A DNA stretch of 64,000 nt from NCBI GenBank assembly GCA_963825865.1, contig CAWGVG010000015.1, positions 128,001-192,000 on the forward strand, read 5' to 3'. Shown here piece after piece: positions 1-42,223 of the stretch; the first letter of the stretch is position 1, and each line of letters starts with the position of its first letter. Under the pieces are notes generated by a model. The model made no database searches, was not told the origin of the DNA, and saw nothing but the letters and a program-made list of their open reading frames with translations. The translations under genes and the position numbers were made by a program. Source of the stretch: an uncultured Nitrososphaeraceae archaeon (lineage in GTDB: Archaea; Thermoproteota; Nitrososphaeria; Nitrososphaerales; Nitrososphaeraceae).

Positions 1-609
1 TTGGGAGTTGAAGTAGAACATGCCAAAACATACCAAACTGCAATAATTTCTGATAAAAAAAAGCACTACATTGGTTGGAGTGGCATACAAGGAAAAGAAC
101 CAGACATAGTAGGAATGGAGGGAGACAAAAATGATAGACCCAGATGGATTAACACTGTATTCAGACAGACAGTATATGATATTATTAGTTCGCAATACTG
201 ATCCATTGCCAAATCTGAAAAAAGCAATTACTAATTTAGAATCTACATAATGTAAATCCAGAATTACTAAAGAGATCTAATAGACTATCCAAAAATCCAG
301 AAGAATATGAAAATGAAAATGATCGTAAACGCAAAATAGGGTTAGCGATTGGTGCAAGGAAAGGAGATGTTATAGAGTATTTTGAATCTGACAACAATAA
401 AGAAGGTTATTCTATAAATCCACAAGACATCAGTATAAAAAAAATACAAAATAATGTTATGGAAAGCAGTTAAGGATATTTTGGAAATTGCAGGTTATGA
501 CATTGCACAGATAGAACAAGAATTAATTTTTAACAATAGCAAATATGGCCACATAGCAGAGCCTCCCCGTGGCGTGGCCGGGTTACGCCAATTTGCAGCA
601 AGGAGGTGA
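1..609 (+). CDS. Family B DNA polymerase, C-terminal palm/thumb part (5'-truncated by window edge, frameshifted); probably element-borne
   Basis: VEHAKTYQTAIISDKKKHYIGW..PDIVGMEGDKNDRP matches the PolB LEYEK..KKRY..KGLE.RRD region. After a shift near 200 it reads RLSKNPEEY..GDVIEY..SINPQDI..KYKIMLWKAVKDILE (thumb) to TGA 607-609. Confidence 0.7.
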
Positions 610-620
610 ATAGTCTAAAT

Positions 621-973
621 ATGGCATCAGAAAGTCAAGTATTAAGTCCTAAAGCCAAGGAAAATTTGCAGAGAAATGCAGAGCTAAGACAAAAGGACAA
701 CAAATTTGTAAAATTCAGCCAAGTGAGAAGAAGGTCTATCAATTCAATCCTGAAAAAATAGAGCAAGTAGAAGCAGAATTTAACGGAAAGAAGAGTCAAA
801 GATACAGATACACAGTAACAGACCCCAACGACAGCAATCAAGAAAAGTACCTAGACGTAGGAAAGAGAACTTCAGAAGACATTGACGCATATTTAAGTGA
901 AGGAAAAACATTACTCAAAATTCAAAGGTTTGGCTTAGGCAAGGATACACGATATCACGTTACACAAGCCTAA
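621..973 (+). CDS. Small protein, putative phage-type single-stranded DNA-binding protein (one frameshift)
   Basis: AGGAGGTGA SD at 601-609, ATG 621. Stitched: MASESQVLSPKAKENLQRNAELRQKDNKFVK..RYRYTVTDP..EGKTLLKIQRFGLGKDTRYHVTQA. The KIxRxGxGxDTxY end resembles viral OB-fold SSBs (inference). Confidence 0.5.
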
Positions 974-1746
974 AACCAAACCTCCATCCGTATTTTTTTG
1001 GATTAAGATACCTTGTATAGGACGTGATATTAAGTTTAACCAAGGTTTGGACGAGTGTCTGAATATAATATCAAGATTAACAGTGAGAGAAAGCTATAGT
1101 TTATCGATTCGGTCCGTAAACCATTAAAAATGCTGTTAAAACATGATAAGGACTATTGACGGACTAACTTGCTCGGATTACATAAATCACATATAGTAAA
1201 AGATTTATTGCAAGACAATATCGTCCTCCATGAATATAAGTTCCTAACTCCTCCATCGTTCTCTTTAATTCATTTATCCTTTTGTCGTAGTAGCTAAAAA
1301 ACAAGTCAGAGATAGCCGCTGCTGTTCTTGTTCATGTAACTGGTTTTGTTCTCGTTATTGCCTCGTTCTTTTTCTAGTCCTTCTTCAACCGTCTTATCAC
1401 AAACAAAATGGGACCCATATCCCTAAATGATATTCTGGCTTCTTTTGCTAACCACTAACAATAACAAATAAAATTACAGCTGCTGCATTTGTAGATAGTA
1501 TGCTTAGAATGAAAGAACATATGCAAAAAAATCTAAGTTTTTTTATCTTGTCTATCCATAACGCTGATTGTAAATCTTACATTAACTACAGCACATTCTG
1601 GGTTGGTTAACGCACAGGACAGAATAATACATCAATGCAACCTCAAGGAACACGGAGCATGGCAACAACAACAAATGCCAATTTTTTGTATACAGTTATT
1701 ATTAATGGTGGTGATGGTACAGAGTAAACATACACTAGCAAGACTA

Positions 1747-4192
1747 TCACTGTGAAGCAAATACTTGAATACGATAATTATAGAATCAGCTACATACACA
1801 TTACCAGATGAATCAATAGCAATACCACATGGGATCTGAATTGTCCATCGCCTGTACCATAAGATCCCCATTTTGTTATAAAATTGCCATTGCTGTCAAA
1901 CTTTTGTATACGATGATTACCTGAATCAGTTACATACACATTACCTGAAGAATCAACAGCGATACCAGTTGGACGTATCAAATTGTCCATCTCCAGTACC
2001 ATAACATCCCCATTTTGTTATAAAGTTACCATTGCTGTCAAACTTTTGGATACGATCGATTATCAGTATCAGCTACATACACATTACCTGAAGAATCAAC
2101 AGCGATACCATAAGGATTATCAAATTGTCCATCTCCAGTACCTTTAAATCCCCATTTTGTTATAAAGTTACCATTGCTGTCAAACTTTTGTATACGATTA
2201 TTATCATGCATCAGCTACATACACATTACCTGAAGAATCAACAGCAATACCATCTGGATGTATCGAATTGTCCATCTCCTGTACCATTACATCCCCATTT
2301 TGTTATAAATTTACCATTACTGTCAAACTTTTGAAACGATGATTATACTCATCAGCTACATACACATTACCTGAAGAATCTACAGCTATACCCTCTGAAT
2401 ATAAATTGTCCATCTCCAATCGCAGATCCTATAAATTGCCCATACTGTTCTAACTGATAAGTATCCCCATTTTCTAACAAAGGTATACTCATTTGATATA
2501 ACAGGTTTTGTTTGATTGGGCATTGTATGTTGGTATTGATTACTAGCAGCTTTCACAGTAACAGATACAATAGCAGGATTATTACTTGCAGCACCTTTAT
2601 CGTCTTTAACTGTAAGAGAGAATTTCAATGTAGTGTCAGACTGATACAGTTGGAGTGTAAATGTGATGTTGCATGTATTAGCATCATTTAATGTTACAGC
2701 TGGACCTGAAGTCTGCGTCCATGAATAAGATGTTATATTGCCATCTGGATCTCTACTGCCGCTACCATCCAAAGTAACAGTATCACCTGCATTAACTGTC
2801 TGATCTGAGCCAGCATTAGCTGTTGGAGGCTGATTAGGTGGTGGTATATACTTGTCTGTAACTTTAACAGTAGCTGTATTAGTTGCATTTTTGCTATCTG
2901 TAACTGTTAATTCAAATATCATATCTGTGTCTGAAGATATATCTTTGGGAGCTGTAAATGTAGCAATGGATGTATCAGCACCGTTCAATGTAACAGTATG
3001 GTCCACTAGTCTGAATCCATGAATATGTTAATGAATCGCCATATCTGGATCTTTACTTTTACTACCATCCAAAGTAACAACATATCCTGCATTTACTGTC
3101 TGATTGTACCGGCATTAGCTACTGGAGGATGGTTGACAGGATTTACTGTGATTTTGACAGTTGAAATACCTGTTGCATTTTTGTCATCTTTAACTGTTAA
3201 TTCAAATACTAATACTGTATCAGTTGAAACATTGATGGAGCTGTAAATGATGGTGTAGCGGTATTAGCACCATTTAATGTAACAGCTGGTCCTCCTATCT
3301 GTTTCCATGAATATGATGTTATAGTTACCATCTGGGTCTTTACTTTTAGTACCATCCAAAGTAACACTATCACCAGCATTAACTGTTTGATCTAAGCCAG
3401 CATTAGCTACCGGTGGTTGGTTAGGAGGTGGAACATACTTGTCTGTAACTTTAACATCATCTACACCAGTTGCATTTTTATTGTCAGTAACTGTTAATTT
3501 AAACGTCAGAGTTGTGTCAGCAGATATGTTGTTAGAAGGAGCTGTAAAGGTAGCTATTGGATCTATTAGCACCATTTAATATAACAGTAGGACCAGCAGT
3601 CTGCACCCATGAATATGTTAATGTATCGCCACTATCAGGGTCTTTGCTTTTACTTCCATCTAGAGTAACAACATAACCTGGATTTACTGTCTGATCTTCA
3701 CCAGCATTAGCTACTGGAGGGTGGTTGATATGCTTGACTGTAATAGTAACAATGGCATGGATTGTTACTTTCAGCACCCTTGTCATCTTTAGCTGTTAGC
3801 GCAAACTTCAATTGGGTATCAGATGGTACATTGGAAGGAGCTGTAAATGTAGGTGAAGATGTATTAGATCGTTTAATATTACAGCTGGTCCTGCAATCTG
3901 TCATCCATGAATAGCTCAATTTATCATTTGGATCTGGATCAATGGCAACACCAACAAGTGTAACCTTTGAGCTCTCATTTACTGTTTGGTCTGGACCAAC
4001 ATTGGCTATAGGAGGATGATTGACTATAGGTGGTTGCTTTGGATTGGTTGGTTTGAACGCTAATGCTGTATGATAAGTATAAGGAGCATTTGGTAAAGTA
4101 TTATTAAATGATGATAAGGGAAGAAAAACATTACAAATTGCGCTGAGTGTTAAAATTAAAGTTATTAAAGTTGTTTTTGTCTTTACCATCAT
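1747..4192 (-). CDS. Secreted surface protein: signal peptide + 5 PKD/Ig-like repeats + NHL beta-propeller (frameshifted)
   Basis: ORFs 3707-4192, 3532-3786, 3264-3575, 2386-3006 and 1790-2002 carry PP.ANAG.DQTVN.G..VTLDGS.S.DPD..YSW.Q..GP repeats, then [29 protein letters not shown] repeats, ending IQVFASQ*. Confidence 0.85.
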
Positions 4193-4211
4193 CTATTAGA
4201 TGTGTTTTAGT

Positions 4212-4238
4212 TTACTTCTAGTATGATATAAAAGCATC
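4212..4238 (-). promoter_or_regulatory. Putative archaeal promoter (TATA) shared with the paralogue at 9109-9135
   Basis: TTACTTCTAGTATGATATAAAAGCATC is identical at both sites. On the minus strand it contains TTTATA about 35 nt upstream of each ATG. Confidence 0.55.
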
Positions 4239-4519
4239 CAGTTATTTTCCGCATTAGTTAAGACATAGATATCTACAATTAACTCTGTGTTACCATCATT
4301 CACTCCAAATGTAACGTTGAGAAATCAAAGATTGATTAATAACTGTCTAGAGTAGTATTCATATCAGTGAGTGTCTAGAGTAGTATAGGAGTAATATTCA
4401 TATCAGCGCATCAGGTTGTCACATTGTGTGATGAATGACTTATAGTATTGGTATTGATACGGGAGAAAGATTAGCATTTACTCTATTTGTTATTGGTATA
4501 AATCTAAAGGAGAAGAATT

Positions 4520-5881
4520 TTGTTTATCTGTATTTTTAAAGGGTATAATCTAATAATACCGCTCTTTTTTATAGTGATGTTATTATTCAGCAGTATATTT
4601 TCATTTCCAATAAAGTATGTTAATGCACAGTCGAATAGCAACCCTGCTACCATAAACCATGTAACCCAATCTTCGATTCCAAATTCATTTAAGGTAACAT
4701 TTGATGGACTAGAGGCATCATCTCCATGTAATCAATGTACTTTTCAAGCCACAACAACTGGTTCATTTACTTTAACTTTTAAAAGTGCTAACCAATTAAC
4801 TGATAGAGAAGAACTTCCGAAGGGCTCTGACTCTGAACTTGAGGCTGATGGTAAGGGATTCATTTCTATTAATGCTCAAAAAACTGTTGATAAAGAAGAT
4901 TGTAGATTCAAGTTTTCTAATGATTATATAATTAAAGGAAATGCGATCTACAGAACTCCAGTAAAAGGAGATGAACATGACCACGGTGGCATTAATGTGT
5001 ATGATATTCACGCTTATCCTAACGAAGCTTATGCAACGTTAGTAAAAGGAAAGGAATCTATTTGTTATGGTACATGGCTGACCTCTCCTGGTGCTCTATT
5101 AACATGTGATAGTGTTTTTATAAATTTAGCAGTAGGCAGCGGTAAAGTTGAAAAAAATGATGATCAAGGACATAAAGAATGCACACTTCAGTAGTCCTAC
5201 TACTGTTACTACAATGGTACAGGTGTATGCCTAACTACAACTACAACTTCAACTTCAAAGAATCCAGCAACCAACAGATCATCCATGCCACTCTCTTCTC
5301 TTAGAAACGACGCTAGTTGTCCAGAATTAAGTGGAGGTATAATGGGTATCAAGATTCCCAGGAAGTAACAACGTTCAGGACCTTGAATCAGGATTTAGGG
5401 CAAAGGCAGAAAAGTTTATTGATGCACTCAAAGCTGCCTGGAGCTCAAGTAACGATTTCAGCCACAAAAAGACCAGAAGAAAGAGCATATCTTATGCACT
5501 GGTCCTGGATGATAGCAAAAGGACATTACGATGCAAGCAAAGTATCAGCCAAAGCTGGAGTAAATATCAACTGGTGGCATGGAGATCAAGCAAAATCAGA
5601 AGCAGCTGCACAGGAAATGGTAGATGGTTATGGAATTAATAATTTACAAGTAGCCCCATCATTGAAATCCCGTCACATTGAGGGCAATGCCATCGATATG
5701 AGCATTTCATGGTCTGATTCTCTAAAAATTAAAAATGCAGATGGAACAGATGTATCAATAACATCTACCCCTAGAGATGGCACCAACAGAAGAGCTGATT
5801 GCTGTTGGAAAAGTCTACGGTGTAATTCACTTCATAGACGTAAACAAAGACAAGCCTCATTGGTCTACTGATGGTAAGTAG
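4520..5881 (+). CDS. Secreted protein with Cys-rich N-domain and C-terminal M15-like (VanY/endolysin-type) Zn peptidase domain (frameshifted)
   Basis: Signal peptide ending VNA-Q. Stitched C-domain: ELSGGxWVSRFPGS..DL..FR...EKFIDALKAAGAQVTISATKRPEERAYLMHWSW...SRHIEGNAIDMSISW...DKPHWSTDGK*. SxHxxGxAxD plus a distal His is the M15 signature. Confidence 0.7.
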
Positions 5882-6080
5882 AGAATATTTTTTGATAAAT
5901 AAATTCTAGAGGGCTTTACCTTCTTACTATATATGGTATATTGATGTTCCGATTCGTTACTATTATGTTAGCATTGCTATCACTTTGTTGCTTGTGATAT
6001 GATTTGTTTTCCGTGATGACACAATTTTTCTCGTATATGTATGTAGGATCTGTGAATCTTAAATAGTCGAAAAGCACGAT

Positions 6081-6372
6081 AATAGAGAAAATATCTCCAC
6101 TACGTCCACCATCTCCACTTTTGCTTAGTTCGACAAATAGAGCTAAATTAAGGTTCTTTTAGCGGAGATATTGCAATGAAGTATCTCCACCAACTACTGC
6201 AATATCTCCACCATTAACTACAGATTATTGGACATAGATAGAGTGGTGGAGGTATTTGTTATACAGGTGGAGATGGTATATGCGGGGTAAGAATATCTCC
6301 ACCATTTTTGGACTAAATTTGAGCACGGAATCAAGTGTGGTGGAGGTAGTGGACATAGTGGAGGTATTTTAC
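6081..6372. repeat. Iteron-like array of CTCCAC/GTGGAG motifs (copy A); inverted homologue of 16668-16942
   Basis: About 10 motif copies, with 9-bp-period triplets at both ends in opposite orientation (ATCTCCACT ACGTCCACC ATCTCCACT ... GGTGGAGGT AGTGGACAT AGTGGAGGT). Confidence 0.8.
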
Positions 6373-6399
6373 ATACTACTGTAGGACAGTAGCTCTTCT

Positions 6400-6646
6400 A
6401 AATCCTCACCTGGTGAAAAATTCTTAACGTTATTTTATCTCGAGAAAACGACTTTATGGAAAAGTCAAAGAAAGATACAGATATACAATGACAGAAGCTG
6501 ATAACGACAAGCGGCAGAAAAATACCAGGAAGTAGGAAACAAACTTCAGAAGAACAGTGAAGCATATCTAGGTGAATAGAAAACATTACTTAAAATTCAA
6601 TGGTTTGGCTTGCAAGGATACATGATATCAAGTTACACGAACATAA
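6400..6646 (+). pseudogene. Decayed copy of the SSB-like gene at 621-973
   Basis: DNA similarity: AAAGATACAGATATACA, GTAGGAAAC AAACTTCAGAAGA, AAAACATTACTTAAAATTCAA, CAAGGATACA.GATATCA.GTTACAC. Internal stops are present. Confidence 0.75.
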
Positions 6647-6755
6647 AGCAAATCCAAAACCTTTCCCATGTTGAATTCTTGTACATCAATTTAAGATCAT
6701 CATACGCGTAGTTTCCGCCAGCAAATTATTACCTACTTTTAAGGCTCATTTAATA

Positions 6756-9090
6756 TTATTTGTAAGCAGCAAACACTTGGATACGGTTATTCTCAAATTC
6801 AGTTACATACACTGTTTTGTAATCTACAGCAATATCTGCTGGACGATCCAATTGTCCATCTCCAGTACCTTGAGATCCCCATTTTGTAATTAAATTACCA
6901 TTGCTGTCGAATTTCTGAATAATAAAGCTATTGCCAGTTACATACACATTGCCTGTTTTGTAATCAACAGCTATACCATAATCCAAAGTACTAATAAACT
7001 CTCCAGCACCAGAAGAGTCTAATGCAATATTAGTTGGTCCTTGAAACTGATGCTGACCGCCAAACTGTCCGTCATCGTTTCCATGAGATCCCCATTTTGT
7101 AATAAAATTACCATTGCTGTCAAACTTTTGAATACGATAATTATAACTGTCGGCAACGTACACATTACCGGATGAAGGTTCAATAGCAACACCCTCTGGA
7201 AAATTGAATTGGCCATCATCTGAACCCAACGATCCCCATTTTGTAATAAAATTGCCATTGCTGTCAAACTTTTGAATACGATGATTAAAAGCCTCTGTTA
7301 CATACACATTGCCTGAAGAATCTACAGCAACGTCTGTGGGCGAATTGAGTTGTCCATTTCCAGTACCTTGAGATCCCCATTTTCTGACAAATTGATAATT
7401 ATTTGCTGTACCACTGCTTGCTTTGGTTAGACTTCCTGTAGTTGTTGGTGCTGTCGCTGCTGGTGTAGCAGTTGCTTTCACAGTAACGGATACGGTAGCA
7501 GGACTATTACTTGTAGCACCTTTATCGTCTTTAACTGTAAGATTGAATTTCAATATAGTGTCGGATGATACGCTTGGTGCTGTAAACGTTGGTGAAGCTA
7601 CATTAGCATCACTCAATGTTATAGTTGGACCTGCAGTCTGTGTCCATGAGTATGATGTTATATTGCCATCAGGATCTCTGCTACCGCTACCATCCAAAGT
7701 AACAGTACCCACTAGCATTAACTGTCTGATCTTGGCTAGCATTCACTGTTGGTGGTTGATTTGGTGGAGGGACATACTTGGCTGTAACTTTGACATTAGA
7801 AGTATTTGTTGCATTTTTGCTATCGGTAACTCTTAATTCAAATGTCATATCTGTGTCTGAAGATATATCCTTGGGAGCTGTAAAAGTAGCAATAGATCTA
7901 TCAACACCATTTAATACCACTGATGGTCCTCCTATCTGTTTCCATGAATAATTCAATGGGTCATTGTCCGGATCTCTACTTTTGCTTCCATCCAAACTAA
8001 CAGCATATCCTGCATTGACTGTTTGATCTAAGCCAGCATTAGCTCAGGTGGATGATTGACAGGATTTACTGTGACTCTAACAGTGGAAATACCAGTTGCA
8101 TTTTTATCATCTGTGACTGTCAATTCAAATACCAATACAGTATTGGTTGAAATATCTGAAGGGGCTGTGAATATAGGTGTAGCAGTAGTAGCGTCGTTTA
8201 TTATAACAATGGGTCCTCCTATCTGTTTCCATGAATAAGACTTTATAGCACCATCCGGGTCTTTGCTTTTACTTCCATCCAAAGTTACAGTATCTCCAGC
8301 GTTTACAATCCGGTCTGAGCCAGCATTGACTACCGGTAGTTTATTAGGTGGTGGGATATACTTGTCTATAACTTTAACATCGGCTGATCCAGTACATTTT
8401 TGCTATCTCTAACTGTTAATTTAAAAATGAGGGGTGTATCAGCAGATATATTGGAAGGAGCTGTAAAGGTGGCTATTGGAGAACTAGCACCATCCAACTT
8501 AACTGTAGGGCCAGCTATTTGTGTCCATAAATAAGATAATGAATCGCCACTATCAGGATCTTTGCTTTTACTACCATCCAAGGTAACAATATCTCCCGGA
8601 TTCACGACTACTTGATTTTCTTGACCAGCATCAGCTACTGGAGGCTGGTTAACATGTTTGACTGTAACGGTTACAATAGCATCATTACTACTTTTAGCAC
8701 CCTTATCATCTTCACTGTCAATAAAAATTTCAAGTCTCTATCTGATGATACAGTTGGAGCTGTAAATGATGGATTAGTGGTATTACTATTGTTTAGTTTA
8801 ACACCAGGTCCAGATATTTGTTTCCATGAATAACTTAATTTGTTGTCACCAGAGTCTGGATCACTTGCTATTCCATTTAACACAACAGTTGCATTTTCAT
8901 TTACTGTTTGGTTTACACCAGCATTAGCTACTGGAGGATTATTAATAATTGGTTTTAGATTAGTTGGTTTGAATGCTAGTGCTGTATAAGTATGAGTAAT
9001 AGCTGGTAAAGTAGTAACAAGAATAAGACTACAAACTAAACTGACAATTAAAATTAAAGTTGTTATTGTAGCTGTTGTCTTTACCATCAT
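6756..9090 (-). CDS. Secreted surface protein: signal peptide + 5 PKD repeats + NHL propeller (frameshifted)
   Basis: ORFs 8671-9090, 8366-8605, 8028-8282, 7687-7995 and 6756-7742; TALA-FKPTN leader; ends RIQVFAAYK. Confidence 0.85.
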
Positions 9091-9108
9091 CGACGAGATA
9101 TATTTTGG

Positions 9109-9135
9109 TTACTTCTAGTATGATATAAAAGCATC
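9109..9135 (-). promoter_or_regulatory. Putative promoter, identical to 4212-4238
   Basis: 27-nt identity upstream of a paralogous start codon. Confidence 0.55.
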
Positions 9136-9342
9136 AGTACCAGTTCATGTCAAGCAAATAAGAAACATATACATCGACGATCAGCAATGATAGATTTGGC
9201 AAAAATGTCACCTAGTAGTAATTAGCCCAATGTGTAACACAAAATACCTTGTAAATTGACAAAGGTATCTTTAGATCTTACTATATACAAGATTTTTTAC
9301 TACTACCTACTTAACAGCTACTACTACTTTTAAGTCTCAACA

Positions 9343-11344
9343 TTATTTCTGAGGGGCAAATACTTGGATACGACTATTTCCATTATCAGATACATACACA
9401 TTACCTGTTTTAGAATCTATAGCAACATAATTTCGACTCTTAAATTGTCCATCTTCGGTACCATAAGAACCCCATTTTGTTATAAAATTACCATTGCTGT
9501 CAAATTTTTGTATACGGTGATTACTACTATCAGCTACATACACATTACCTGAAGAATCAATAGCAATACCTAATGGACTATCGAATTGTCCGTCTTCAGT
9601 ACCATAAGAACCCCATTTTGTTATAAAGTTACCATTGCTGTCAAATTTTTGTATACGGTTATTGCCGTAATCAGCTACATACACATTACCTGAAGAATCA
9701 ACAGCGACACCTTCTAGGATTGAATTGAATTGTCCGTCTTCGGTACCATAAGAACCCCACTTTGTTATAAAATTACCATTGCTGTCAAATTTTTGTATAC
9801 GGTTATTGCCGTAATCAGCTACATACACATTACCTGAAGAGTCAACAGCGACATCATTTGGAAAATGAGAATTGTCCATCTCCAGAACCATGAGATCCCC
9901 ACTTTGTTATAAAATTACCATTGCTGTCAAATTTTTGTATACGGTTATTGCCGTAATCAGCTACATACACATTACCTGAAGAGTCAACAGCGACATCATT
10001 TAGTTGAATGAATTGTCCATCTCCAGAACCTTGAGATCCCCACTTTGTTATAAAATTACCATTGCTGTCAAATTTTTGTATACGGTTATTGCCGTAATCA
10101 GCTACATACACATTACCTGAAGAGTCAACAGTCAACTCCAGTTATAAGATTGAATTGTCCGTCTTCGGTACCATTAGAATCCCCATTTCCTTACAAATGA
10201 ATACTCATTTGAGACATTAACTTTTGTCTGATTACTTGATGCTGTTACTATTGATGGCTTCTGTACAGCGGCTTTCACCGTGACACTCACAATAGATGGA
10301 TTATTACTTGCAGTACCTTTATCATCCTTAACTGTAAGAGAGAATTTCAATATAGTATCAGATGATACACTTGGAGCTGTAAATGATGTTATTGCAGTGT
10401 CTGCACCGCTTAGTGTAACAGATGGACCGGAAGTCTGCATCCATGAGTATGATGTTATATTGCCATCTGGATCTCTACTGCCACTCCCATCTAAAGTAAC
10501 ATTATCACCAGAATTAACTGTCTGATCTAGACCAGGCGTTAGCTGTTGAAGGCTGATGGGGTGGTGGTATATACTTGTCTGTAACTTTAACGTCATCTAC
10601 ACCAGTAGCATTTTTACTATCTCTAACTGTCAGTCTAAATATCAAATCAGTGTCAGCAGATATGTTGTTTGAAGGAGCTGTAAAGGTAGCTATAGTTCTA
10701 TCAGCACCATTTAATGCAACGTTTGGGCCTGCAGTTTGTATCCAGGAATAGATTAATGGATCGTTATCAGGGTCTTTGCTTTTACTTCCATCTAGAGTAA
10801 CAATATATCCTGCATTAACTGTCTGGTCAATACCTGCATCAGCTATTGGAGGGCGGTTGATATGCGTGACAGTAATAGTAACAATGGCTAAATTGTTACT
10901 TTCAGCACCTTTATCATCTTTAGCCGTCAAGGCAAACTTCAATTGGGTATCTGACGGCACATTGGAAGGAGCTGTAAACGTAGGTGAAGCAGTATCATGA
11001 CCGTTCAATGTTACTGCAGGTCCTGCAGTTTGCAACCAAGAATAACTTAATTTATCGTTCGGATCCGGATCAATGGCAACACCAACAAGTGTAACCTTTG
11101 AGCTCTCATTTACTGTCTGGTCTGGACCAACATTGGCTATAGGAGGATGATTAATAGTAACAGGTTTCGAAACAGTAGTATTATTAGTTGGTTTGAATGC
11201 TAATGCTGTATATTTCTTATCTGTAATATTGAGGATAGCAGTAGATAAAAAAACAATATTACTATAAACTAAAATGACCAAGGCCAAAGTTAATACAACC
11301 AAGAGTTTTCGATCCTTATCCATAAGAAAAGTCTTGATTGCCAT
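9343..11344 (-). CDS. Secreted surface protein: signal peptide + 3 PKD repeats + 6-blade NHL propeller (frameshifted)
   Basis: ORFs 10514-11344, 10174-10596, 9854-10135 and 9343-9891; near-identical ~141-bp NHL repeats. Confidence 0.85.
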
Positions 11345-11771
11345 TTTTTTATCTTATTATTTCCTTGCACGTTTGTTTAGATTTTAATGTTTCAGTATAT
11401 TGTCATCATGACTCGAAACAATATGCAGACTGGCTGAATCAGCTGTTACACTAAATGATTCTGATATTATTTTTAACAAATGATTATTACTTTTGATAAG
11501 ATTTGATTACTATTTGCCCAAAATAGGAGAAAATATTATAACCTCATCTCATTTACAATAGCATATAATGGCAGTCATTAGGAGCAGTCTCTGTTCTGAG
11601 CCATGTTGCCGGAGACTAGCTGATGTAATATACTCCAACAACTGGAACAGTAAAAAATACACTAGCAGCTGCCATTCTAGTTATTATTATCATCGTCATT
11701 ATTGCTTCTATTCTGGTTACACCACAAATGTTTACGGTAAAGATATTCTTAGGAGATGCTGTTGTAGGCTT

Positions 11772-12259
11772 ATGACAATAACAGACAAAAAAGAAAACAT
11801 AATATTAATCAATATTGAATCTACCTCTAAAGAAGAAGAGGATCATGACGAAGACCCAGAAGAGCTAGAACGAATTACCCATAACCTACGAGACGAACTA
11901 ACTGAAATAGATGCAATAGAAAAGGTAGATTTAGTTATCAAAAGAAGGAGAAAAAGCTCCAAAAGGCTCCAAAGCTGGTGCCGAAGTAGTTGCATTGGGT
12001 TCTTTGCTTGTAACTTTAGGGACATCAGCAGTAAGCACTGCTATACCGAATCTTTCTAATGCTCTTCAATCATGGCTTACTCGTCATGAAAGACGTAAAA
12101 TCAGTTTAGAGATTGGAGGAGATAAGATAGAAGTAACAGGCATATCCGATGAACAGCAGGCAGCGGTTGATCGAGTCTTGGATAAGCCGCATAGCATCAG
12201 CAAAGAGAAAAAAAAGGAGAAGTACAGACGGATGGCGCCTGAAAGACGTTTTGCATTAA
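11772..12259 (+). CDS. EACC1-like (effector-associated constant component 1) protein (frameshifted; 3' end uncertain)
   Basis: Stitched: DPEELERITHNLRDELTEIDAIEKVDLV..EKAPKGSKAGAEVVALGSLLVTLGTSAVSTAIPNLSNALQSWLTRHERRKISLEIGGDKIEVTGISDEQQQRLIESW. This fits the EACC1 pattern (G.KG, hydrophobic helix, WL.R, terminal beta hairpin) and lies directly before a caspase. Confidence 0.7.
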
Positions 12260-14590
12260 TCGTAGCCAGCTCGCAATATGTAGATCCAGATCTGCAGAAA
12301 TTGATTGCACCAGCTCAAGACGCTGAAGCATTGGCAAATGTACTACAAGATCCTAACATCGGTGGCTTTGAGGTCAAAACACTGTTAGATGAACCTTCTT
12401 ACAAGGTAAATGAAGAAATCCAGGCATTCTTTAGTGACCGTGGACGAGAGGATCTATTGCTTCTTTATTTTTCGTGTCATGGAATAAAGGATGAAGAGGG
12501 GCAGCTTTACTTTGCTACTTCAAACACTAGCCGTAAGCTGCTAGATGCAACTGCAATTTCGGCTAATTTTGTAAATAGGATGATGTTTCGTAGTCGTTCA
12601 CGCGGCAGCTGTTATTGTTGGACTGCTGCTATAGTGGTGCTTTTGCAAAAGGACTTGTAAGCAGAGCTGATAAAAAAATACATACTGGAGATTACTTTGA
12701 CGAAGGTCGTGGAAGAATAGTATTAACTGCATCAGACTCTATGCAGTATTCTTTTGAAGCAGATACATTGAATGTTGAGGTAAAAGACCCAGGTTCAATC
12801 TTTACTCGTGCCATAATAGATGGATTGAATACAGGAAAGGCTGATCTGGACAAAGATGGCCGAATTTCGTACGATGAACTATATGACTATACATATGATC
12901 GAGTAATAGATGAGACTCCTCTTCAAAGACCAGGTAAGTGGGTGTTTGGTGTAGAAGGAGATGTGATTGTTGCCCGCAATCCCAACTGGAAAGAAGTCAA
13001 CAATAAAGGACCTGTAAAAACAGCCGGGGAGGAAATTGTAACAACAACCACAAAGCCCAAAGAGGTAACAAGCCCTAAAACACCACCATCAGCAGCAGAT
13101 CAACATCACATATCACACCACCACAATCAGATATAGCAAACAAACCTATTCATCAGAAGAAAAATCAACTCCGTCAGCATTAACACCAATAAAAGACATT
13201 ACTCCAACAACAAGGCCATCCAACAATAATAAAAAAAGAGTCATCTCTTCTTACACCACCTTCTGATTTAACCACTACCATTTATAGAAGAAAAAACAGC
13301 CAAGACTGAAAAAAACATAGAGTCAGATATAGAAGAAACAAATAATAAATTCCAAGCAGGCGGTCCGATCATTTACAAAGGATAATACTTTTGTCACTGA
13401 AAGAAGTAGTGGAAATGCTTCTTCTTCTTCGTCATCACAGCCTGTACATGAAAGAAATCTGGCTTAAGCAATCCAACTATATTGTTACCAATTTTAGGAG
13501 GAGGTATCATAGGAGGCATCGTAATTGCTCTTGTTGCAGGTGGAATAATACATTTACCTGGTGGAGGAAATGTACCACCATCAACACCAGCGACTCCGGC
13601 ACAACCACCACCACCACCTACTTCTCTTCTTGCTCCTAACCGTCTACCAGTAGCTAATGCTGGTACAGACCATACAGTCAACGCAGGTGATACTGTTACG
13701 TTAGATGGTACTAAAAGTGCTGATCTTGATGGTAATATAAGGTCATATTCATGGCTACAAACTGCTGGACTACCTGTTACATTAAATGGTGCTAACACAG
13801 CCACACCATCGTTTGTTGCTCCTTCAGATATATCATCTGATCTCTTATTAACCTTCAAGTTGACAGTTAAAGACAACGCAAGTGCTACGAATACAGCCAC
13901 TGTAAATATCACAGTCAAACATGTTACACCAATAATACCACCAGCGTTACCAACACCTGTGGATCATCCTCCTACAGCTACTAACCAATCTGTTACAACT
14001 AACCAGAATACTCCAGTAGATATTACATTAGCAGGAAGTGATCAAGATCAGAATGACACATTGACTGCACATATAGTTACACCACCATTGCATGGAACCT
14101 TAGGTACAATTAACCAGACTACAGGTGTCGTAACCTATACACCAAACCAAGGATTTACCGGAGATGACAGCTTTACCTTCAAGATAAATGATGGTAAAGC
14201 AGATAGCAGCAACACAGCTAAGGTGTCAATAACAGTAAATAACTCTCCAGCAAATAATGGTAATAGTGCTCCTTCTAACCAGACTCAGCAGATATCATCT
14301 TCTAACACTGCTCCCACTGCTACTGACCAATCTATTACAACTAACCTGAATACGCCTGTTGATATTACATTGGCAGGTAGTGATCCAGATCAGAATGATA
14401 CATTAACAGCACTGTAGTGACGAATCCATCTCATGGAACTTTGAGTAATGTCAACCAAGATACTGGTGTTGTAACCTATACACCAAACCAAGATTTCACA
14501 GGAGATGATAGCTTTACATTTAAAGTAAATGATGGTAAAACTGATAGCAGCAATACAGCTACTGTGAATATAAAAGTAGGTGGGGGCTAA
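12232..14590 (+). CDS. Caspase-like (peptidase C14) protease, apparently fused via S/T/P linker and one TM helix to 1 PKD + 2 cadherin/Big_9-like Ig domains (frameshifted)
   Basis: RFALIVASSQY.D..L..L....DA, LLYFSCHG (catalytic His), LLDCCYSG (catalytic Cys), SIFTRAIIDGL.TGKADLDKDGRISYDEL. TM: KKSGLSNPTILLPILGGGIIGGIVIALVAGGII. Then one PKD and two PTAT.QS.TT..NTPVDITLAGSD..HGTL..TYTPNQ.FTGDDSFTFK.NDG repeats. Continuity across 13136-13480 is inferred. Confidence 0.75.
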
Positions 14591-14650
14591 ACAATATAAA
14601 GAGTGGTAATAATACTCCATTAGCTTTACCCAAAATTAGTTAGCGAGCAA

Positions 14651-16517
14651 ATGATAATAACAAAAATATTCAGAAATAAGCAAATGAGAGAGAGATCCCG
14701 CAATTTTCTATTATACTCTTCACTTATTGTTATTTTGTCAGAGCTATTGATATTGTTGCCATCATTTACTACTACTAATACTACTTTACCAAGTATTTCT
14801 AATGTCTATTATAATACAGCATTAGCATTTAAACCAACCAATAAAAATCCATCTATTTTAAGACCACCCATTTCTGTTAATCATTCTCCTGTCAGCTAAT
14901 GTTGGTCCAGACCAAACAATCAATGAAAATGCAACTGTTACACTTGTTGGTGTGGCCATTGATCCAGATCCAAATGATAAATTAACCTATTCATGGATGC
15001 AAACTGCAGGACCTACCGTAACACTGAACCGCCCTAATACATCTTCACCTACATTTACAGCTCCTTCCAATATACCATCCGATACCCAATTGAAGTTTGC
15101 ACTAACAGCTAAGGATGATAAGGGTGCTGCAAGTAACAATTTAGCCATTGTTACTATTACAGTCAAGCATATCAATCGTCCTCCAACAGCTGACGCTGGT
15201 CACTGATCAGACAGTCAATGCAGGTTATGTTGTTACTCTGGATGGCAGTAAGAGCAAAGACCCTGATAGTGGTGATACATTAACCTATTCCTGGGTTCAG
15301 ACTGCTGGTCCTACTGTTACATTAAATGGTGCTGATACATCCATAGCTACTTTTACCGCTCCTAAAGACATATCATCTGACACAGACATGAGATTTCAAT
15401 TAACAGTTACCGATAGCAAAAATGCAACTAATTCTGCTACTGTCAAAATTACAGACAAGTATGTCCCTCCACCCAATCAGCCTCCAACAGCTAACGCTAG
15501 CTCAGATCAGACAGTTAATGCAGGCGATACTGTGACTTTAGATGGTAGCGGAAGTAGAGATCCAGACGGTACCATAACATCATACTCATGGATGCAGACT
15601 TCAGGTCCAGCTGTAACATTGAGCAGTCCATATGTAGCTTCACCAACGTTTACAGCCCCAGGTGTTTCATCTGATACTGAGCTGAAATTCTCACTTACAG
15701 TTACAGATGATAAAGGTGCTGCAAGTAATAATGCTGCCTACTGTGACGGTTACTGTGAAAGCTCCTCCTGCACCGTCGGGTAATATGACATCAGCCGAAG
15801 GTGGTGGTGGTACTAATATGACATCAGCTGCCGCACCATTACCATCGTCTGATGCTACTGCATTATATAATAAAGCTCGGTGATCTTGATAGCCAAGGTA
15901 ACTACACAGGAGCTATAACCTATTTAGACAAGGCTTTAGCTATAGATCCAAATTATAAAGAAGCATTAACTGAGAAAGGTTTAGATCTTAATAACCAGGG
16001 TAACTATGCAGAAGCTATAACCTATTTAGACAAGGCTTTATCTATAGATCCAAATTTCAAAGAAGCATTAAATAATAAAGCTAATGCTCTTGGTAGCCAA
16101 GGTAACTACACAGGAGCTATAACCTATTTAGACAAGGCTTTATCTATAGATCCAAATTTCAAAGAAGCATTATATAATAAAGGTTTTGCTCTTTATAGCC
16201 AGGGTAACTATACTGGAGCTATAAGCTATTTAGACAAGGCTTTATCTATAAATCCAAATTTCAAAGAAGCATTAACTGGTAAGGGAGAAGCTCTTAATAG
16301 CCAGGGTAACTATGCAGAAGCTATAACCTATTTAGACAAGGCTTTAGCTATAGATCCAAATTATAAAGTTGCATTAAACGATAAAGGTTTTGCTCTTTAT
16401 AGCCAGGGTAACTATACTGGAGCTATAAGCTATTATGACAAGGCTTTATCTATAGATCCAAATTTCAAAGAAGCATTAGATAACAAACAAAATGCTCTTT
16501 CTAAGATGGGCCGCTAG
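14651..16517 (+). CDS. Secreted surface protein: signal peptide + 3 PKD repeats + ~6 TPR repeats (frameshifted)
   Basis: TALA-FKPTN leader and PKD repeats as in the NHL paralogues, then 34-aa repeats QGNY..AI.YLDKAL.IDPN.KEAL..K...L. Confidence 0.85.
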
Positions 16518-16667
16518 TCTATAGCAAGAAAAACTTTGCTATCGCTTGTTTGGGATCAGGATCCAAGTGTTTCAGAATTTTCTTTTTGTATAATATCTAT
16601 AATCACTCTTAGAACTATCTTTTAGTATGCTTGTATATCATCTACTGATGTTTCCTCTTAGAATATA

Positions 16668-16942
16668 GTAAAATACCTCCACTATCTGCACTACCTCCAC
16701 CAAAGCCAAATTCGTGCTCAAACTTGCTCCAAAAAATGGTGGAGATATTCTAAGTTACTGTATACAATACCTCCACCTTTCAACAAATACCTCCACCACT
16801 TTTGCTATCGGTGGAGATACTGTAACCGTGAGTGGACATATGCCTCTACAATACCTCCACTAAAAGAAGCTTAAATCTTGCTCCTTTTGGCAAAATAAGC
16901 AAAAGTGGAGATGGTGGAGATAGTGGAGATGCTTTCGCTATT
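16668..16942. repeat. Iteron-like CTCCAC array (copy B), reverse-complement homologue of 6081-6372
   Basis: GTAAAATACCTCCACTAT, CGTGCTCAAA, CCAAAAA(A)TGGTGGAGATATTCT and AAGCAAAAGTGGAGATGGTGGA are reverse complements of segments in copy A, in the same order. Confidence 0.8.
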
Positions 16943-16992
16943 CTTGCTAGAAGTATAATGAATGCTCAATTGCAGGTAGTTGATTTACAGCG

Positions 16993-17619
16993 CTACTTAT
17001 GAAGTTTGGAACTTCTACTGAGAACTCTTCGATTAACTTCTCTCCAAGTCCAATGGGTTCTAATATTTCTTTGATGAAAATCATCAGGGCTCATTATTAT
17101 ATTTCCACTTGATGTTGATGGCTCAATAGATAATACAGAATTAAGTATTCGATAATTCTTGAAAATACCTTTGTGTGGTAATAGGACAAACCCATCTATT
17201 GTCCAGTCTATTGACAGTGTTTCTCCTTCTCTCCAGGAATTCAAATATTCAATGTCACCAGAATCGACTGCTTTGCTAAAGGAAATGTAACCTCCAGTAT
17301 ATAATTTGGTTTCTTCAGAATGAAGATGAATATTTGTTTCTTTGTTACTTTTCTTAGTTTTGAGTTTTAATATGCATCTTGCATTATTTAACAGAAACAA
17401 TTCATTTACGGTTTCCATCAGTGTATTAAGAAGGTGTGGTGTATCATGAGTGTATATGCCAAAAGGATTAACAACCTTAAATCTCAAAATGATCTTCGGT
17501 TTTGTTTCAGATGGAATTCCTTTATCCTTTCTGTAGCATTTTAGATAATCGTATGTAAGAGCATTTGTATTATTATAATGAATTTTTACATATACAGAAA
17601 TAATATTTTGAGTAGACAA
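16993..17619 (-). CDS. Hypothetical protein
   Basis: 208-aa ORF in AT-rich DNA; no motif recognised. Confidence 0.45.
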   Translation of the reverse strand: MSTQNIISVYVKIHYNNTNALTYDYLKCYRKDKGIPSETKPKIILRFKVVNPFGIYTHDTPHLLNTLMETVNELFLLNNARCILKLKTKKSNKETNIHLHSEETKLYTGGYISFSKAVDSGDIEYLNSWREGETLSIDWTIDGFVLLPHKGIFKNYRILNSVLSIEPSTSSGNIIMSPDDFHQRNIRTHWTWREVNRRVLSRSSKLHK

Positions 17620-19848: not shown

Positions 19849-22457
19849 TCAGCCGACACGGTTTCTAAACGCAGATTCCTTTCCAACCCTCTTCAGAATA
19901 TAAGGAATATAAACGCTTTGTCTGACTGAGTCTACGTGTAAAAAGCTCACTCCTTGGGAAAGCCAGCCAAGTAAGTGACTGCGCTCTGAATAATATTTGC
20001 CTATCAAAATGTCATCATTGACTTGCCTTATCTCATCATGAAAGATCCCTCCTGTTGAATCCTGCATTTCTACATGATCTTCCTTTTCGTTAACTATGGC
20101 GGTACCTGCAAGAGCATTGCCAAATACATAATCATTCTTCAAAGCCGTTGTATTTCCGTCTTTGTCAAAATAATATCTGAACTTGAATACAGGCTCACTC
20201 CATATAGAATCTGAAACAAGTCGACCTTCCCAAATTCCTACCATCGATTGCAAGGTAGGTTTCTTCGTCTTGCGGTATAACATTTCATGGTCTTCTATAG
20301 TCATAAACTCAAAAGGATAATTCCTTGACATTGAAAATGTCAACATTTCCCTACCGGCGCTGGGTTTGCCTAGAAAGGCTTTACCAAGTATAGTGTTTTC
20401 ATCTACTATTTTCAAGACATCATAAAATAGATTGTAAGGAGGATCTAGATACTCTAGCAATATCGTTCTACCAAGCCCATCCAACTCCTTGTTACTAGCT
20501 TTGTTTCTGGCAAAGACTGGAACTTCAAAGGGATGAGTTGTTCCCATAATATCCCCAGATTCATTCTTAGTAAATCTTTTCCAAAATCCCCCAAAATAAA
20601 GTGTTAAGGTATTCCGTATGTCAGTATCTCGAGTGAAGATTCCCTTCCAATGTGAGTTATTTGAGATTGTAAGGGTTTCCGGGTCGAATTTCCAATTTGC
20701 TTCTTCTGCTTTATCACTTGCAGCATTGACAAGCGTCTGCACATCAAATTGAGTATTTGCAGAATCAAATAGTTTTGATAGATTATCTCTAAGGCAATAC
20801 ATTGGTTGTGACATAGCACATATATGTCCTAAACCCTTGTTGTTCAAAGAAATATTGTCATATTTATCTTTCCAATCTTTCATTATCCTTGATGCAACTA
20901 TAGAAGCTACTGTCATTACGGTGATCTGTGGATTGACTCCAACTGAGGTAGGAAATACGCTCGCATCACAGACAAATAGGTTTTCAAATCCATGAACTCT
21001 GCAATCTGAATCTACCACGGAGTCAGCCTGGTTTGTCCCAATTTTATTTCCTGACTGAGGATGTGCCGAACCTAAGAGCAGGTTCTTTGGATCATTAAGT
21101 ATTTTGTCAATAAGTTTGAGAATATCTGCTTCATTTTCTACAATGCTCATACTTCTGTGAGAAATAATTATTCTTCTAGCTCCAAGTGCAAACCACATCT
21201 TTCCTAATACTTCAACACCCTTTGCAATTATCCTGAGTTCTTTTTCTCTTGGCTCATAGGTCACACTAACTCTGCCGGTAGATGTAAGGGACACTCTTCC
21301 AATGTTATCATCACGTACTACAATTCCAGCCATCGCATAATTATTGAACCTTTCAATGAGTCTTCTATGCTCACTTATTCCACTAGCGGAAAGTGCGATA
21401 GAAAATTGAAGTAATGGAAGAAATATGCTCTCAATTAGAAACTCTCCAGCATCAAAGTTATGCTCTATTCTTGCTTGATCTGTATTTCTGGTTACACCAA
21501 AATCATGTACCGTGTATGCCATTGGAATTCCCTGGTTACCCTTTATTTCATAATCAAAGTCCCCTATGACTTCAATTCCGGGATGCAAACATAAACCAAC
21601 TCCCGCAGTGTCTTGTGCTATTCCATTTTGAAGAAGGAGTTTAGACGATGCGATGGCTCCTGCACTTACTATGACTATTTTTGCATTCACTCTGATTCTG
21701 TATGTCTTGTTACCGTCAATATTAATGAAATTGCCTTCTACACCTTCTACAACTCCATTTCTATGAACGATTTCTTCGATGATAGCAATTGCAATAGACT
21801 CTCATATCAGAGTCAGGTTTCTTTAATGCCTCATGGATATAGGTTACAAGAACGTTTTGTTTTGTCTCGTAGTGACATCCTATATGGCAGAATCCGCATT
21901 GCATGCAGTTAACACAATTTCTAGAATTATTCCTATGCTCCCTTAATCCAAGCTTTTCTGCACCTTTCTTTAGCATAAGGTTATTTCTATTTAATTCATC
22001 TTCACTCACTTTGGTCACATGGAGAGTGTCGTTTACTTTTTGAAGATGATCTGACCATTCTTCATAGATAAAATTGACGCCAAGTCTATTCCATTCCTCA
22101 CGTACACGTGAAGGAGTATCAAAACATACTGCATCGTTAATTATTGTTGAGCCGCCTAAACAACATCCTTGCGCTATAGCTATTCTAAGGCTATCTACGA
22201 AATTAAAACCTGCATTTTTCCAAAGAAGAGGCATCATATCAATTTCGCGTTGATTCATATCCTTTCCTTCATGATATCCACCTCTCTCAATTAGAACAAC
22301 TTTTTTTCCAGATTCGACAAGCTCTTTAGCAAGAACTGCACCGGCAGCTCCAGATCCTATAATACAAACATCCACATTCTCGACAATGTCATTTTTAATT
22401 ACTTCATATTTTTCATGTCTGTCTGTGAGATGCATCTATTCCATATACTATGCCCAT
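19849..22457 (-). CDS. GMC-family FAD oxidoreductase with long C-terminal extension (frameshifted)
   Basis: DVCIIGSGAAG (FAD), LGGSTIIN, NCVNCMQCGFCHIGC, SAHPQSG, VCDASVFPTSVGVNPQIT; AGGAGG SD before ATG at 22457. Confidence 0.85.
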
Positions 22458-41485: not shown

Positions 41486-42223
41486 ATGAGCTTTACTAAC
41501 CTGCCTTTATTGGAGCAAATTCGTGCTAGGATAAATAAAACGCTAATTGATGGTATCCAGATTAATATGTCAACCGAAGAATCTAAAAAATTACTGAGAA
41601 GGCATGTAAACACCAAAACAAATCTGGTGGTTATGTTTATAGATATTAACAACTCAACAGAAATGAGCCTCTCTTTACCAGAACATAAATTTGCTTTAAT
41701 CGTACAAAGTTTTGCTCAAGAAATAAGTATTGCTGTATCAGGTTATGGTGGCTATGTATTCAAGTATGAAGGCGATGCTGTTATTGTATTATTTCCTGCG
41801 GAATATGATCGGATAAAAGCATGTAAAAATGCATTGAATTGTTCAAGAGCAATATTGCAAATTATAAAAGAAGTTATCAATCCTGCATTTAAGGCAAATG
41901 AATTACCTGAAATCACAGTAAGAATAGGATTGGCTTATGGCTATGCTTTAGTAGTACTTTACGGAAAGAGTTTAGAAAAAGCCCACATAGATATAATAGG
42001 TTCTAGTATAAGCATGGCTTCAAAGATTGCATCTCTTGCAAAGCCTAATCAGCTATTGGTAGGCGAATATATTTACAATATCCTGTTGTCATCGGATAGC
42101 AAAAAAGATTTTTTAAACAATATCACGTTTGTAGAGGTAGATCTCGATCCAATAAAATGGAAATATCTCTCTCATTTTGATCCCGAAAGTATGTATCGTG
42201 TATACGAATATTTAAAAAGTTAA
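41486..42223 (+). CDS. Class III adenylate/guanylate cyclase domain protein
   Basis: VMFIDINNST, FKYEGDAV, VRIGLAYG, DIIGSSISMASKI. Confidence 0.9.
   Translation: MSFTNLPLLEQIRARINKTLIDGIQINMSTEESKKLLRRHVNTKTNLVVMFIDINNSTEMSLSLPEHKFALIVQSFAQEISIAVSGYGGYVFKYEGDAVIVLFPAEYDRIKACKNALNCSRAILQIIKEVINPAFKANELPEITVRIGLAYGYALVVLYGKSLEKAHIDIIGSSISMASKIASLAKPNQLLVGEYIYNILLSSDSKKDFLNNITFVEVDLDPIKWKYLSHFDPESMYRVYEYLKS

Follow-up and report, generated by a model that had tools for sequence, protein, structure and literature searches.

We describe here a gene in a stretch of 64,000 nucleotides, hereinafter the window, from the genome of an uncultured Nitrososphaeraceae archaeon (GenBank assembly GCA_963825865.1, contig CAWGVG010000015.1, positions 128,001 to 192,000 of the forward strand). 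The gene occupies positions 4520-5881 of the plus strand of the window, comprises approximately 450 codons and, as translation of the region 4500-5940 in three frames reveals, is spread over several reading frames. The parts of the encoded protein are, in order, a hydrophobic leader, an N-terminal domain that we call the orphan domain, a Ser/Thr-rich linker and a C-terminal domain of 178 residues, a predicted zinc peptidase. A preliminary description, made from the DNA sequence, had proposed that this is a secreted peptidase of the M15 type, antibacterial or scavenging cell walls, that was acquired from bacteria and attacks peptidoglycan, a polymer that its producer lacks.

Frame 2 is open from the TTG codon at 4520 to a TAG at 5192-5194 (224 codons) and encodes the leader, which ends in ...YVNA|QS, followed by a domain with 6 further Cys residues. 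The start codon and the leader take up 4520-4627, with TTG 4520 as the listed start and ATG 4577 as the alternative, and the orphan domain, of about 188 residues, takes up 4628-5191; one may guess that it has a role in targeting or binding. The earlier label 'Cys-rich' for this domain was generous, although Cys residues are indeed present (7 in the 224 residues). The linker (5190-5341) begins in frame 0 with SSPTTVTT (5190-5213) and continues in frame 2 (5213-5341) with a Thr-rich stretch, ..TTTTTSTSKNPATN.., that runs to ..DASCPELSGG. The M15/LAS-like zinc peptidase domain (5324-5878, with the stop codon at 5879-5881) starts with ELSGG (5324-5338), resumes with WVSRFP from 5343 and consists of three frame pieces, namely, WVSRFPGS...DALKAA in frame 0 (5343-5438), GAQVTISATKRPEERAYLMHW...SRHIEGNAID...TPRDGTN in frame 1 (5440-5787), and EELIAVGKVYGVIHFIDVNKDKPHWSTDGK in frame 2 (5789-5878, or 5789-5881 with the stop). 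The same three-frame path is followed by a tblastn comparison of intact homologues with the C-terminal region.

Three motifs of this domain are central to its interpretation, all on the plus strand. In RPEERAYLMHW (5470-5502) lie the Arg residues that are invariant in the family (R106 and R110 in the numbering of the homologue P0004), the first of which falls on the Arg of the VanY 'YRS' motif. SRHIEGNAID (5668-5697) is a version of the SxHxxGxAxD motif, with the first two predicted Zn ligands (the His and the Asp, each conserved in 97/100 members of the family), and DKPHW (5849-5863) provides a D-x-x-H arrangement with the predicted catalytic Asp and the third Zn ligand, His (93/100 and 95/100 members, respectively). 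These three motifs, along with ELSGG and WVSRFP, had all been named in the preliminary description, and each could be located.

The protein is probably exported via a Sec-type leader, a putative signal peptide or signal anchor. The hydropathy of the leader is high (Kyte-Doolittle means over 15 residues of up to 2.7), and a single-sequence AlphaFold model of the N-terminal half, with a predicted local distance difference test score (pLDDT) of 38 for the whole, has a helix at residues 2-26 as its sole confident part. A V-N-A|Q site is present as well. The start is ambiguous between 4520 and 4577. The orphan domain has no Pfam or NCBIfam family, the only match being to DUF5960 at E 0.042, below the cut-off of that family. 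Searches of 5.8 billion proteins for longer and similar-length homologues returned only the domain itself, and the best score in a language-model atlas was 0.79, which gave nothing usable; weak matches in two relatives (E 0.006 and 0.009) were treated as due to chance. A related soil contig (sequencing run X1, record 2) matches the window at 4803-4893 and then continues with 60 letters unlike the window; because of this divergence, the N-terminal half may vary or be recombined among close relatives or strains.

The C-terminal domain and its bacterial relatives

An exhaustive HMMER search of protein clusters, with the 121-residue piece encoded at 5437-5799 as the query, retrieved 721 cluster representatives at E<=1e-3, including 496 at 1e-10 and 21 at 1e-30, with the best match at 71% identity; in every member protein, the family match is C-terminal. 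The window shares 28 of the 30 near-invariant residues of the family, including all the predicted active-site residues, and the remaining two columns correspond to the S and G of LSG, which are visible by eye in ELSGG and were misplaced by the fragment aligner. Given the 721 matched clusters and the 28/30 shared near-invariant residues, the motifs in the window are not a chance occurrence.

None of the five fragments of the window protein has a match in Pfam or NCBIfam, and no Pfam M15 model is found at E<=1. An AlphaFold2 model was built from a 100-sequence alignment whose first row is the homologue P0004, which is 66% identical to the piece from the window over the matched part (pLDDT 89.8, predicted template modelling score 0.80). 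A VIA structure search with the P0004 model among 48,161 chains produced 11 matches at Z>=5, all 11 of which are LAS proteins, with 89-130 residues aligned: Ply500 (Z 7.0), LysB4 (6.8), DacB (6.5), VanXYg (6.5), BaLdcB (6.4), two Sonic hedgehog entries (5.8), VanXYc (5.8), VanYB (5.7), VanX (5.5) and Hedgehog (5.4), the next one being a Streptomyces DD-peptidase (4.7). In a Foldseek comparison with the PDB, ranks 1-11 are all M15 proteins (VanYB, Ply500, LdcB, VanXYc and VanX), with E values of 0.007-0.08. Profile-profile comparison by hhalign with seven VanY domains from bacterial genomes aligned 115 columns end to end at E 0.0016, pairing T-x-R-P with the arginine of Y-R-S, SRHxxGxAID with SEHxxGLAVD, and D-x-P-H-W with E-P-W-H of VanY. 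Among the family members themselves, the Pfam VanY model touches 14/100 at E<=0.1 (3.5e-8 at best) and Peptidase_M15_4 touches 13/100, and a single member of the 27 stand-alone ones (189 residues) reaches the VanY cut-off, with 25.3 bits against the required 25 and a match over residues 28-153.

Several of these observations weigh against the assignment. Z scores of 5.4-7.0 lie in the range that the VIA tool rates as middling, and it is the uniformity of the LAS matches, rather than the height of Z, that makes this evidence count. Foldseek found no match in the PDB at E<=1e-3, the hhalign probability is only 16%, and comparison of the family profile with PDB sequences yielded nothing but two rows at chance level. 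No M15 model from Pfam matches the window fragments, or 86 of the 100 members, even at E 0.1. Besides, the structural model is of P0004 rather than of the window's own protein.

The M15 fold and the proposed Zn ligands (SxHxxGxAxD plus a distal His) nevertheless fared well, since the model of the P0004 homologue matches only LAS proteins at VIA Z>=5, and the motifs align with the Zn-binding and catalytic residues of VanY. Because the curated M15 models miss the protein from the window, it is best placed in a divergent branch of the M15 clan rather than in any defined Pfam family. From the model and the alignments, we conclude that the C-terminal domain is a predicted divergent, so far unmodelled branch of the M15/LAS clan that would work like an M15 peptidase. 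With the M15/LAS peptidases (VanY, VanXY, LdcB/DacB, Ply500 and LysB4), it shares the fold class, as judged from the 66%-identical homologue and VIA Z scores of 5.5-7.0, and the layout of the active site, that is, a conserved Arg, S-x-H-x-x-G-x-A-x-D and an acid-x-x-His. It differs from VanY in that approximately 45 residues (..INWWHGD..AAQEMV..) are inserted after the Arg helix and ahead of the SRH motif, and in the conserved N-terminal LSGxxW..FP element of the family, which VanY lacks. D-x-x-H in place of E-x-x-H is the form typical of M15C endolysins; the two best VIA matches, Ply500 and LysB4, are endolysins as well but, to within 1 Z unit, do not stand apart from the other matches.

The bacterial members of the family are found in contexts of attack on the cell wall. 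The N-terminal partners in 23 long members include eCIS_core (2), PG_binding_1 (4), SLT (2), Phage_lysozyme, M23, S8 subtilase, PKD and CARDB; among 100 members of 170-350 residues, PG_binding_1 is present in 8 and PAAR in 2; and about 27 of the best 150 members stand alone, with lengths of 176-215 residues. The gene order in Pseudomonas farris is Hcp, VgrG, the family member, an open reading frame (ORF) of 125 codons, DUF4123 and Rhs, and in Enterobacter and Intestinirhabdus, an ORF of 107-109 codons overlaps the end of a stand-alone family member. The small downstream ORFs of the three genera (L020:6599-6973, L059:6545-6865 and L030:6524-6850) are homologous to one another (25-29% identity for Pseudomonas versus the Enterobacteriaceae, with E values of 1e-10 to 1e-14 across genera), have lipoprotein-like leaders and belong to no Pfam family at E<=1e-5. 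We regard their products as candidate cognate immunity proteins; the location of a small homologous lipoprotein-like ORF downstream of bacterial members suggests a toxin that acts in the periplasm together with its immunity protein. The preliminary description had noted a likeness to bacterial cell-wall hydrolases and effectors, which is borne out by the fusions to murein-associated domains, to PAAR and to eCIS_core, and by the Hcp-VgrG neighbors.

The closest bacterial homologues (P0001, P0003 and P0009) share a short N-terminal ..Q..GN.A.QR.L.. element that precedes a low-complexity linker and belongs to no Pfam family; elements that resemble it are found at the N-termini of contractile-injection-system cargo. 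In NCBI product names, one member of the family is a 'peptidoglycan-binding domain-containing protein' and the others are 'hypothetical'. Literature searches for M15 or VanY-like type VI secretion system (T6SS) effectors returned no paper that names or tests this subfamily, and one apparent match for an M15 effector turned out to be the unrelated lacZ-delta-M15 genotype. On the bacterial side, a widespread unnamed effector-immunity family (721 clusters, with links to T6SS and to extracellular contractile injection systems (eCIS), and with PG_binding fusions) deserves a family model and a biochemical assignment.

Host, origin and integrity of the gene

The genome assembly consists of 4.98 Mb in 62 contigs, with a completeness of 81.8% and an estimated contamination of 2.77%, and contains an archaeal amoA gene; the organism, an ammonia oxidizer, belongs to the same family as 36 sampled genomes of the Nitrososphaerales type. 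The size of the assembly exceeds that of every one of these 36 genomes (1.2-4.2 Mb) although its completeness by markers is only 81.8%, which might reflect a truly large genome, a mixture of strains or markers hidden by indels. The contig is 215.6 kb long, with a G+C content of 35.2%, compared with 34-37% for most contigs, and carries the peptidase gene at 132.5 kb. At 40-100 kb, it encodes archaeal leucyl- and alanyl-tRNA synthetases (LeuRS and AlaRS), archaeal elongation factor 2 (aEF-2), an MCM-like protein and TatC, and approximately 25 kb downstream of the gene, it encodes a protein whose homologues are confined to this archaeal family (6/18 genomes).

Searches with the protein in 60 relatives, and with the profile in 400 genomes sampled across the phylum, 334 of them of high quality, did not detect the peptidase family (0/60 and 0/400). 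A scan of one genome per species detected 282 relatives of the domain, the best 80 of which are all bacterial (80/80 named loci) and come from Planctomycetota, Chloroflexota, Acidobacteriota, Pseudomonadota, Bacillota, Actinomycetota, Melainabacteria and Myxococcota. A quick tree with 81 rows, otherwise bacterial, places the protein from the window beside two Chloroflexota metagenome-assembled genomes with a Shimodaira-Hasegawa-like approximate likelihood ratio test (SH-aLRT) value of 85 and no bootstrap, and given this basis, no donor is claimed. The proposal of horizontal acquisition agrees with these distributions, and the comparison of sequences supports the view that the catalytic module was acquired from bacteria. 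The G+C content at third codon positions (GC3) of the peptidase domain is 0.309, against a genome mean of 0.299 +/- 0.067, with 39% of windows equal or higher; there is thus no anomaly of composition, and this host-like codon usage indicates that the transfer was not recent.

The same bacterial affinities could have a trivial cause, namely, that the contig is bacterial or chimeric and the gene is foreign to the archaeon. All the named relatives of the domain are bacterial, and an assembly in 62 contigs with 2.77% estimated contamination leaves some room for such an artifact. However, the gene is located between archaeal hallmark genes (40-90 kb on the contig) and the lineage-restricted gene about 25 kb downstream; the G+C content of the contig and the GC3 of the gene are typical of the genome; PKD-NHL genes with paralogues across the window flank the gene on both sides; and related contigs from other soil runs share the same non-coding flanks both upstream and downstream. 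With amoA in the genome, archaeal hallmark genes on the contig and a lineage-restricted gene on the far side, the contig is archaeal, as had been assumed, and we consider contamination highly improbable.

The disruption of the reading frame calls for a separate explanation. There are five indel sites, at approximately 5191, 5211/5212, 5341, 5437 and 5789. The in-frame TAG at 5192-5194 arises from the first two, and the last three are single extra bases within the C-terminal domain. Comparison with four public soil sequencing runs at 85% likeness gave short contigs that are 90-99% alike to the window but do not cover ~4894-5147 and 5593-5703; the best share of the words of the stretch in any public run was 0.12, so the source strain is probably not represented. 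The extra base at 5341 is absent in all three covering runs (X1, X2 and the RNA library X12), and those at 5437 and 5789 are absent in X1, the sole run that covers either site. In the linker, X12 has a deletion of 1 base at 5191 and of 2 bases at 5211, and X2 has an additional T behind 5212; in the leader region, three DNA runs match the window without indels, and only X12 has an extra T, behind 4564. By frame arithmetic, the indels of the related contigs between 5191 and 5789 join the pieces into one reading frame and put the TAG out of frame. Given that the related contigs read as a single frame and that the X12 contig bridges 5148-5397, from the orphan domain into the peptidase domain, the two halves belong to one gene rather than two, as the preliminary description had it.

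Frame breaks are not limited to this gene. On the same contig, the single-copy aEF-2 gene (87706-89854) consists of two frame pieces and the archaeal AlaRS gene (64873-67515) of three, and frame switches are seen in 3 of 12 conserved genes when these are compared with ORFs from two complete relatives. Within the window, the PKD-NHL neighbor (1632-4192) is broken into five or more ORF pieces, and the gene for a GMC oxidoreductase (19849-22435) is split into N- and C-terminal ORFs. Crude ORF coverage was uninformative as a measure of assembly quality, with 0.63 for the genome and 0.51-0.91 for control stretches of two complete relatives. Since indispensable genes on the same contig are broken likewise, the assembly can be taken to contain indel errors, and the five breaks in the peptidase gene are most likely of this nature, as far as the comparison of contigs goes. 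Because indels break genes, the marker completeness of 81.8% may be an underestimate, and, for this assembly, apparent pseudogenes need checks at the level of reads given that indel errors break genes throughout.

An alternative is that the gene, once acquired and functional, was inactivated in this strain by real frameshifts and a stop, and is now a decaying relic without a present function. Five frame-disrupting sites within ~600 bases are denser than the single break in aEF-2 or the two in AlaRS and, put differently, five indel sites in 0.7 kb exceed the 1-2 per 2-3 kb of the housekeeping genes. No contig that covers the break sites is clearly from the same strain as the window; the intact related contigs are only 90-99% alike and hence come from other strains. 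The patchy distribution of the family, too, is compatible with frequent gain and loss. These points count against an intact gene, but the same kind of breakage affects indispensable single-copy genes and the neighboring PKD-NHL genes, which points to errors in the assembly. Moreover, indels apart, there is no decay: 28/30 near-invariant residues are intact, no frame piece contains an internal stop, and at four of the sites the break consists of one surplus base, the pattern that a systematic sequencing error would leave. An inactivated gene therefore seems quite unlikely to us.

Genomic neighborhood and proposed function

The gene is separated by a divergent intergenic region (4193-4519), which contains TATA-like stretches, from a PKD-NHL gene on the minus strand that starts at 4192, so the divergent transcription of the two that had been noted before holds. 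This region includes direct repeats, a 14-mer, GTCTAGAGTAGTAT, at 4345 and 4373, and an 11-mer, ATTCATATCAG, at 4357 and 4396; the repeats at 4345-4406 are possible regulator sites common to both divergent genes. The window is rich in paralogous genes for secreted surface proteins (K319L-like PKD, Big_9, NHL propellers and Big_5), which are dense on both strands at 1-17000 and 54358-59111, and the peptidase gene looks like part of a surface-protein and exoprotein region. The ORFs scanned in the first 22 kb of the window include PKD, NHL, caspase-like, TPR and GMC oxidoreductase genes, and no linkage to Hcp, VgrG, PAAR or eCIS_core was found among them. Farther along the window, an ORF at 11995-12657 (+) has a caspase domain (Peptidase_C14, E 5.9e-10), and the flanking ORF pieces at 11568-13136 may be one broken gene; a protein with a class III adenylate/guanylate cyclase domain is encoded at 41486-42220 (+); and a transposase of the insertion-sequence type (DDE_Tnp_1) is found at 52895-53761 (-), some 47 kb from the peptidase gene, with no mobile-element gene closer. 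Two soil-metatranscriptome contigs match the peptidase gene, which is a weak hint of expression.

No immunity gene had been apparent from the sequence, and none was found here, either directly downstream of the gene or by homology. The plus strand has no ORF of at least 40 amino acids at 5882-6255, and only a 42-amino-acid ORF (6256-6384) precedes the next gene, at 6756; by tblastn with the three bacterial immunity candidates, nothing better than E 7 was detected in the whole genome.

Taken together, the sequence and model data lead us to favor, with moderate confidence, a horizontally acquired, secreted Zn peptidase that would act on bacterial murein. The bacterial branch of the family would be a toxin or lysin module that attacks peptidoglycan and is delivered on T6SS (beside Hcp-VgrG or fused to PAAR), as eCIS cargo or in fusions to domains that bind murein or, like itself, cut it; in Proteobacteria, its partner would be a lipoprotein-like immunity protein of the periplasm. 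The archaeon probably took the catalytic module from bacteria, the nearest rows of the tree, weakly supported, being from Chloroflexota, with the leader and the orphan N-terminal domain, which have no bacterial counterpart, replacing the bacterial modules for delivery or wall binding. After export, Zn would be held by the His of SRH, the Asp of AID and the His of PHW, and the Asp of DKPH would serve as the general base in the hydrolysis of a bond in the stem peptide of bacterial murein. Being free of murein itself, the producer would require no immunity. The data show the structure of the gene, its family membership and bacterial distribution, the fold class, the conservation of the active-site residues and the archaeal context, whereas secretion, Zn binding, the substrate bond and the ecological role of the protein, antibacterial or scavenging, are inferred. 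The points that speak against this function, in addition to those listed for the fold, are the ambiguity of the start codon (a start at ATG 4577 would give a short, uncharged leader), the lack of a recognizable murein-binding module in the N-terminal domain and the absence, from the literature searched, of activity data for any member of the subfamily.

Conceivably, the protein functions as a secreted M15-like peptidase but acts on something other than bacterial murein, be it soil peptides, with D-amino acids or otherwise, or the host's own surface proteins, in whose maturation or turnover a repurposed toxin module might take part. In line with this possibility, the murein-binding and delivery modules of the bacterial proteins are replaced by an orphan domain found nowhere else, the gene sits among many genes for secreted PKD/NHL surface proteins, its host-like codons (GC3 0.309 vs 0.299) suggest that it was kept long enough to change its role, and the LAS fold is also seen in proteins that do not act on murein, such as Hedgehog. 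We nevertheless think such a substrate unlikely: the context of the family is all murein (fusions with PG_binding_1, SLT, lysozyme and M23; T6SS loci; periplasmic immunity), the active-site residues are those of hydrolases of murein peptides, and ammonia-oxidizing archaea are not known to carry polymers of D-amino-acid peptides in their envelope.

If murein is indeed the substrate, a bolder interpretation comes into view. Soil ammonia-oxidizing archaea, usually viewed as passive chemolithoautotrophs, might actively lyse neighboring bacteria by means of a captured toxin domain of injection cargo, made freely secreted by an archaeal leader and a lineage-specific targeting domain. We offer this only as a tentative possibility, on balance rather doubtful. 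Were it true, the gene would give a first access, at the molecular level, to the antagonism of nitrifying archaea and bacteria, and a contact-dependent effector would have been turned into a diffusible one across domains of life.

Comparison with known systems

The WHIX paper (PMC12135965) lists M15-like toxic domains among those carried by T6SS effectors. The domain in the window is up to 71% identical to a family whose members lie beside Hcp-VgrG, are fused to PAAR or follow eCIS_core, whereas, in the archaeon, genes for an injection machinery are missing from its vicinity, as are PAAR, eCIS_core and a gene for immunity, and delivery is apparently by a Sec-type leader. Reportedly, an eCIS toxin survey (PMC8213781) also deals with peptidoglycan-targeting effectors of bacterial eCIS, and a 2014 paper in eLife (PMC4241558) is said to concern archaeal peptidoglycan hydrolases acquired from bacteria.

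The closest precedent among archaea is the work of Strock et al. (2025), the main text of which reports homologues of modular peptidoglycan hydrolases (PGHs) in 175 of 3,706 archaeal genomes and the killing of a bacterium by two haloarchaeal M23 enzymes, the first demonstration of archaeal enzymes that kill bacteria. The screen in that study called for a Pfam catalytic domain combined with a Pfam cell-wall-binding domain, and its main text makes no mention of Nitrososphaer*, Thermoproteota, M15, VanY or ammonia-oxidizing archaea. The protein described here resembles these archaeal PGHs in being a predicted murein-directed enzyme of a murein-free organism, with bacterial ancestry and a patchy spread, a putative leader for export and no gene for immunity. 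It differs from them in that it has neither a Pfam catalytic domain nor a Pfam wall-binding domain, and in that its catalytic module comes from a family of toxin cargo and its partner domain is an orphan (Strock et al., 2025).

Surveys for pairs of Pfam domains overlook candidates of this kind, in which a divergent, unmodelled M15 catalytic branch is joined to an orphan partner domain. Such a candidate is now at hand in ammonia-oxidizing archaea, key soil nitrifiers whose dealings with bacteria are little known, and it adds a new lineage to the recently described borrowing of bacterial cell-wall-cutting weapons by archaea. The concept is thus known already; the novelty lies in the lineage of the host, in a catalytic subfamily that no model covers and in a partner domain that is an orphan.

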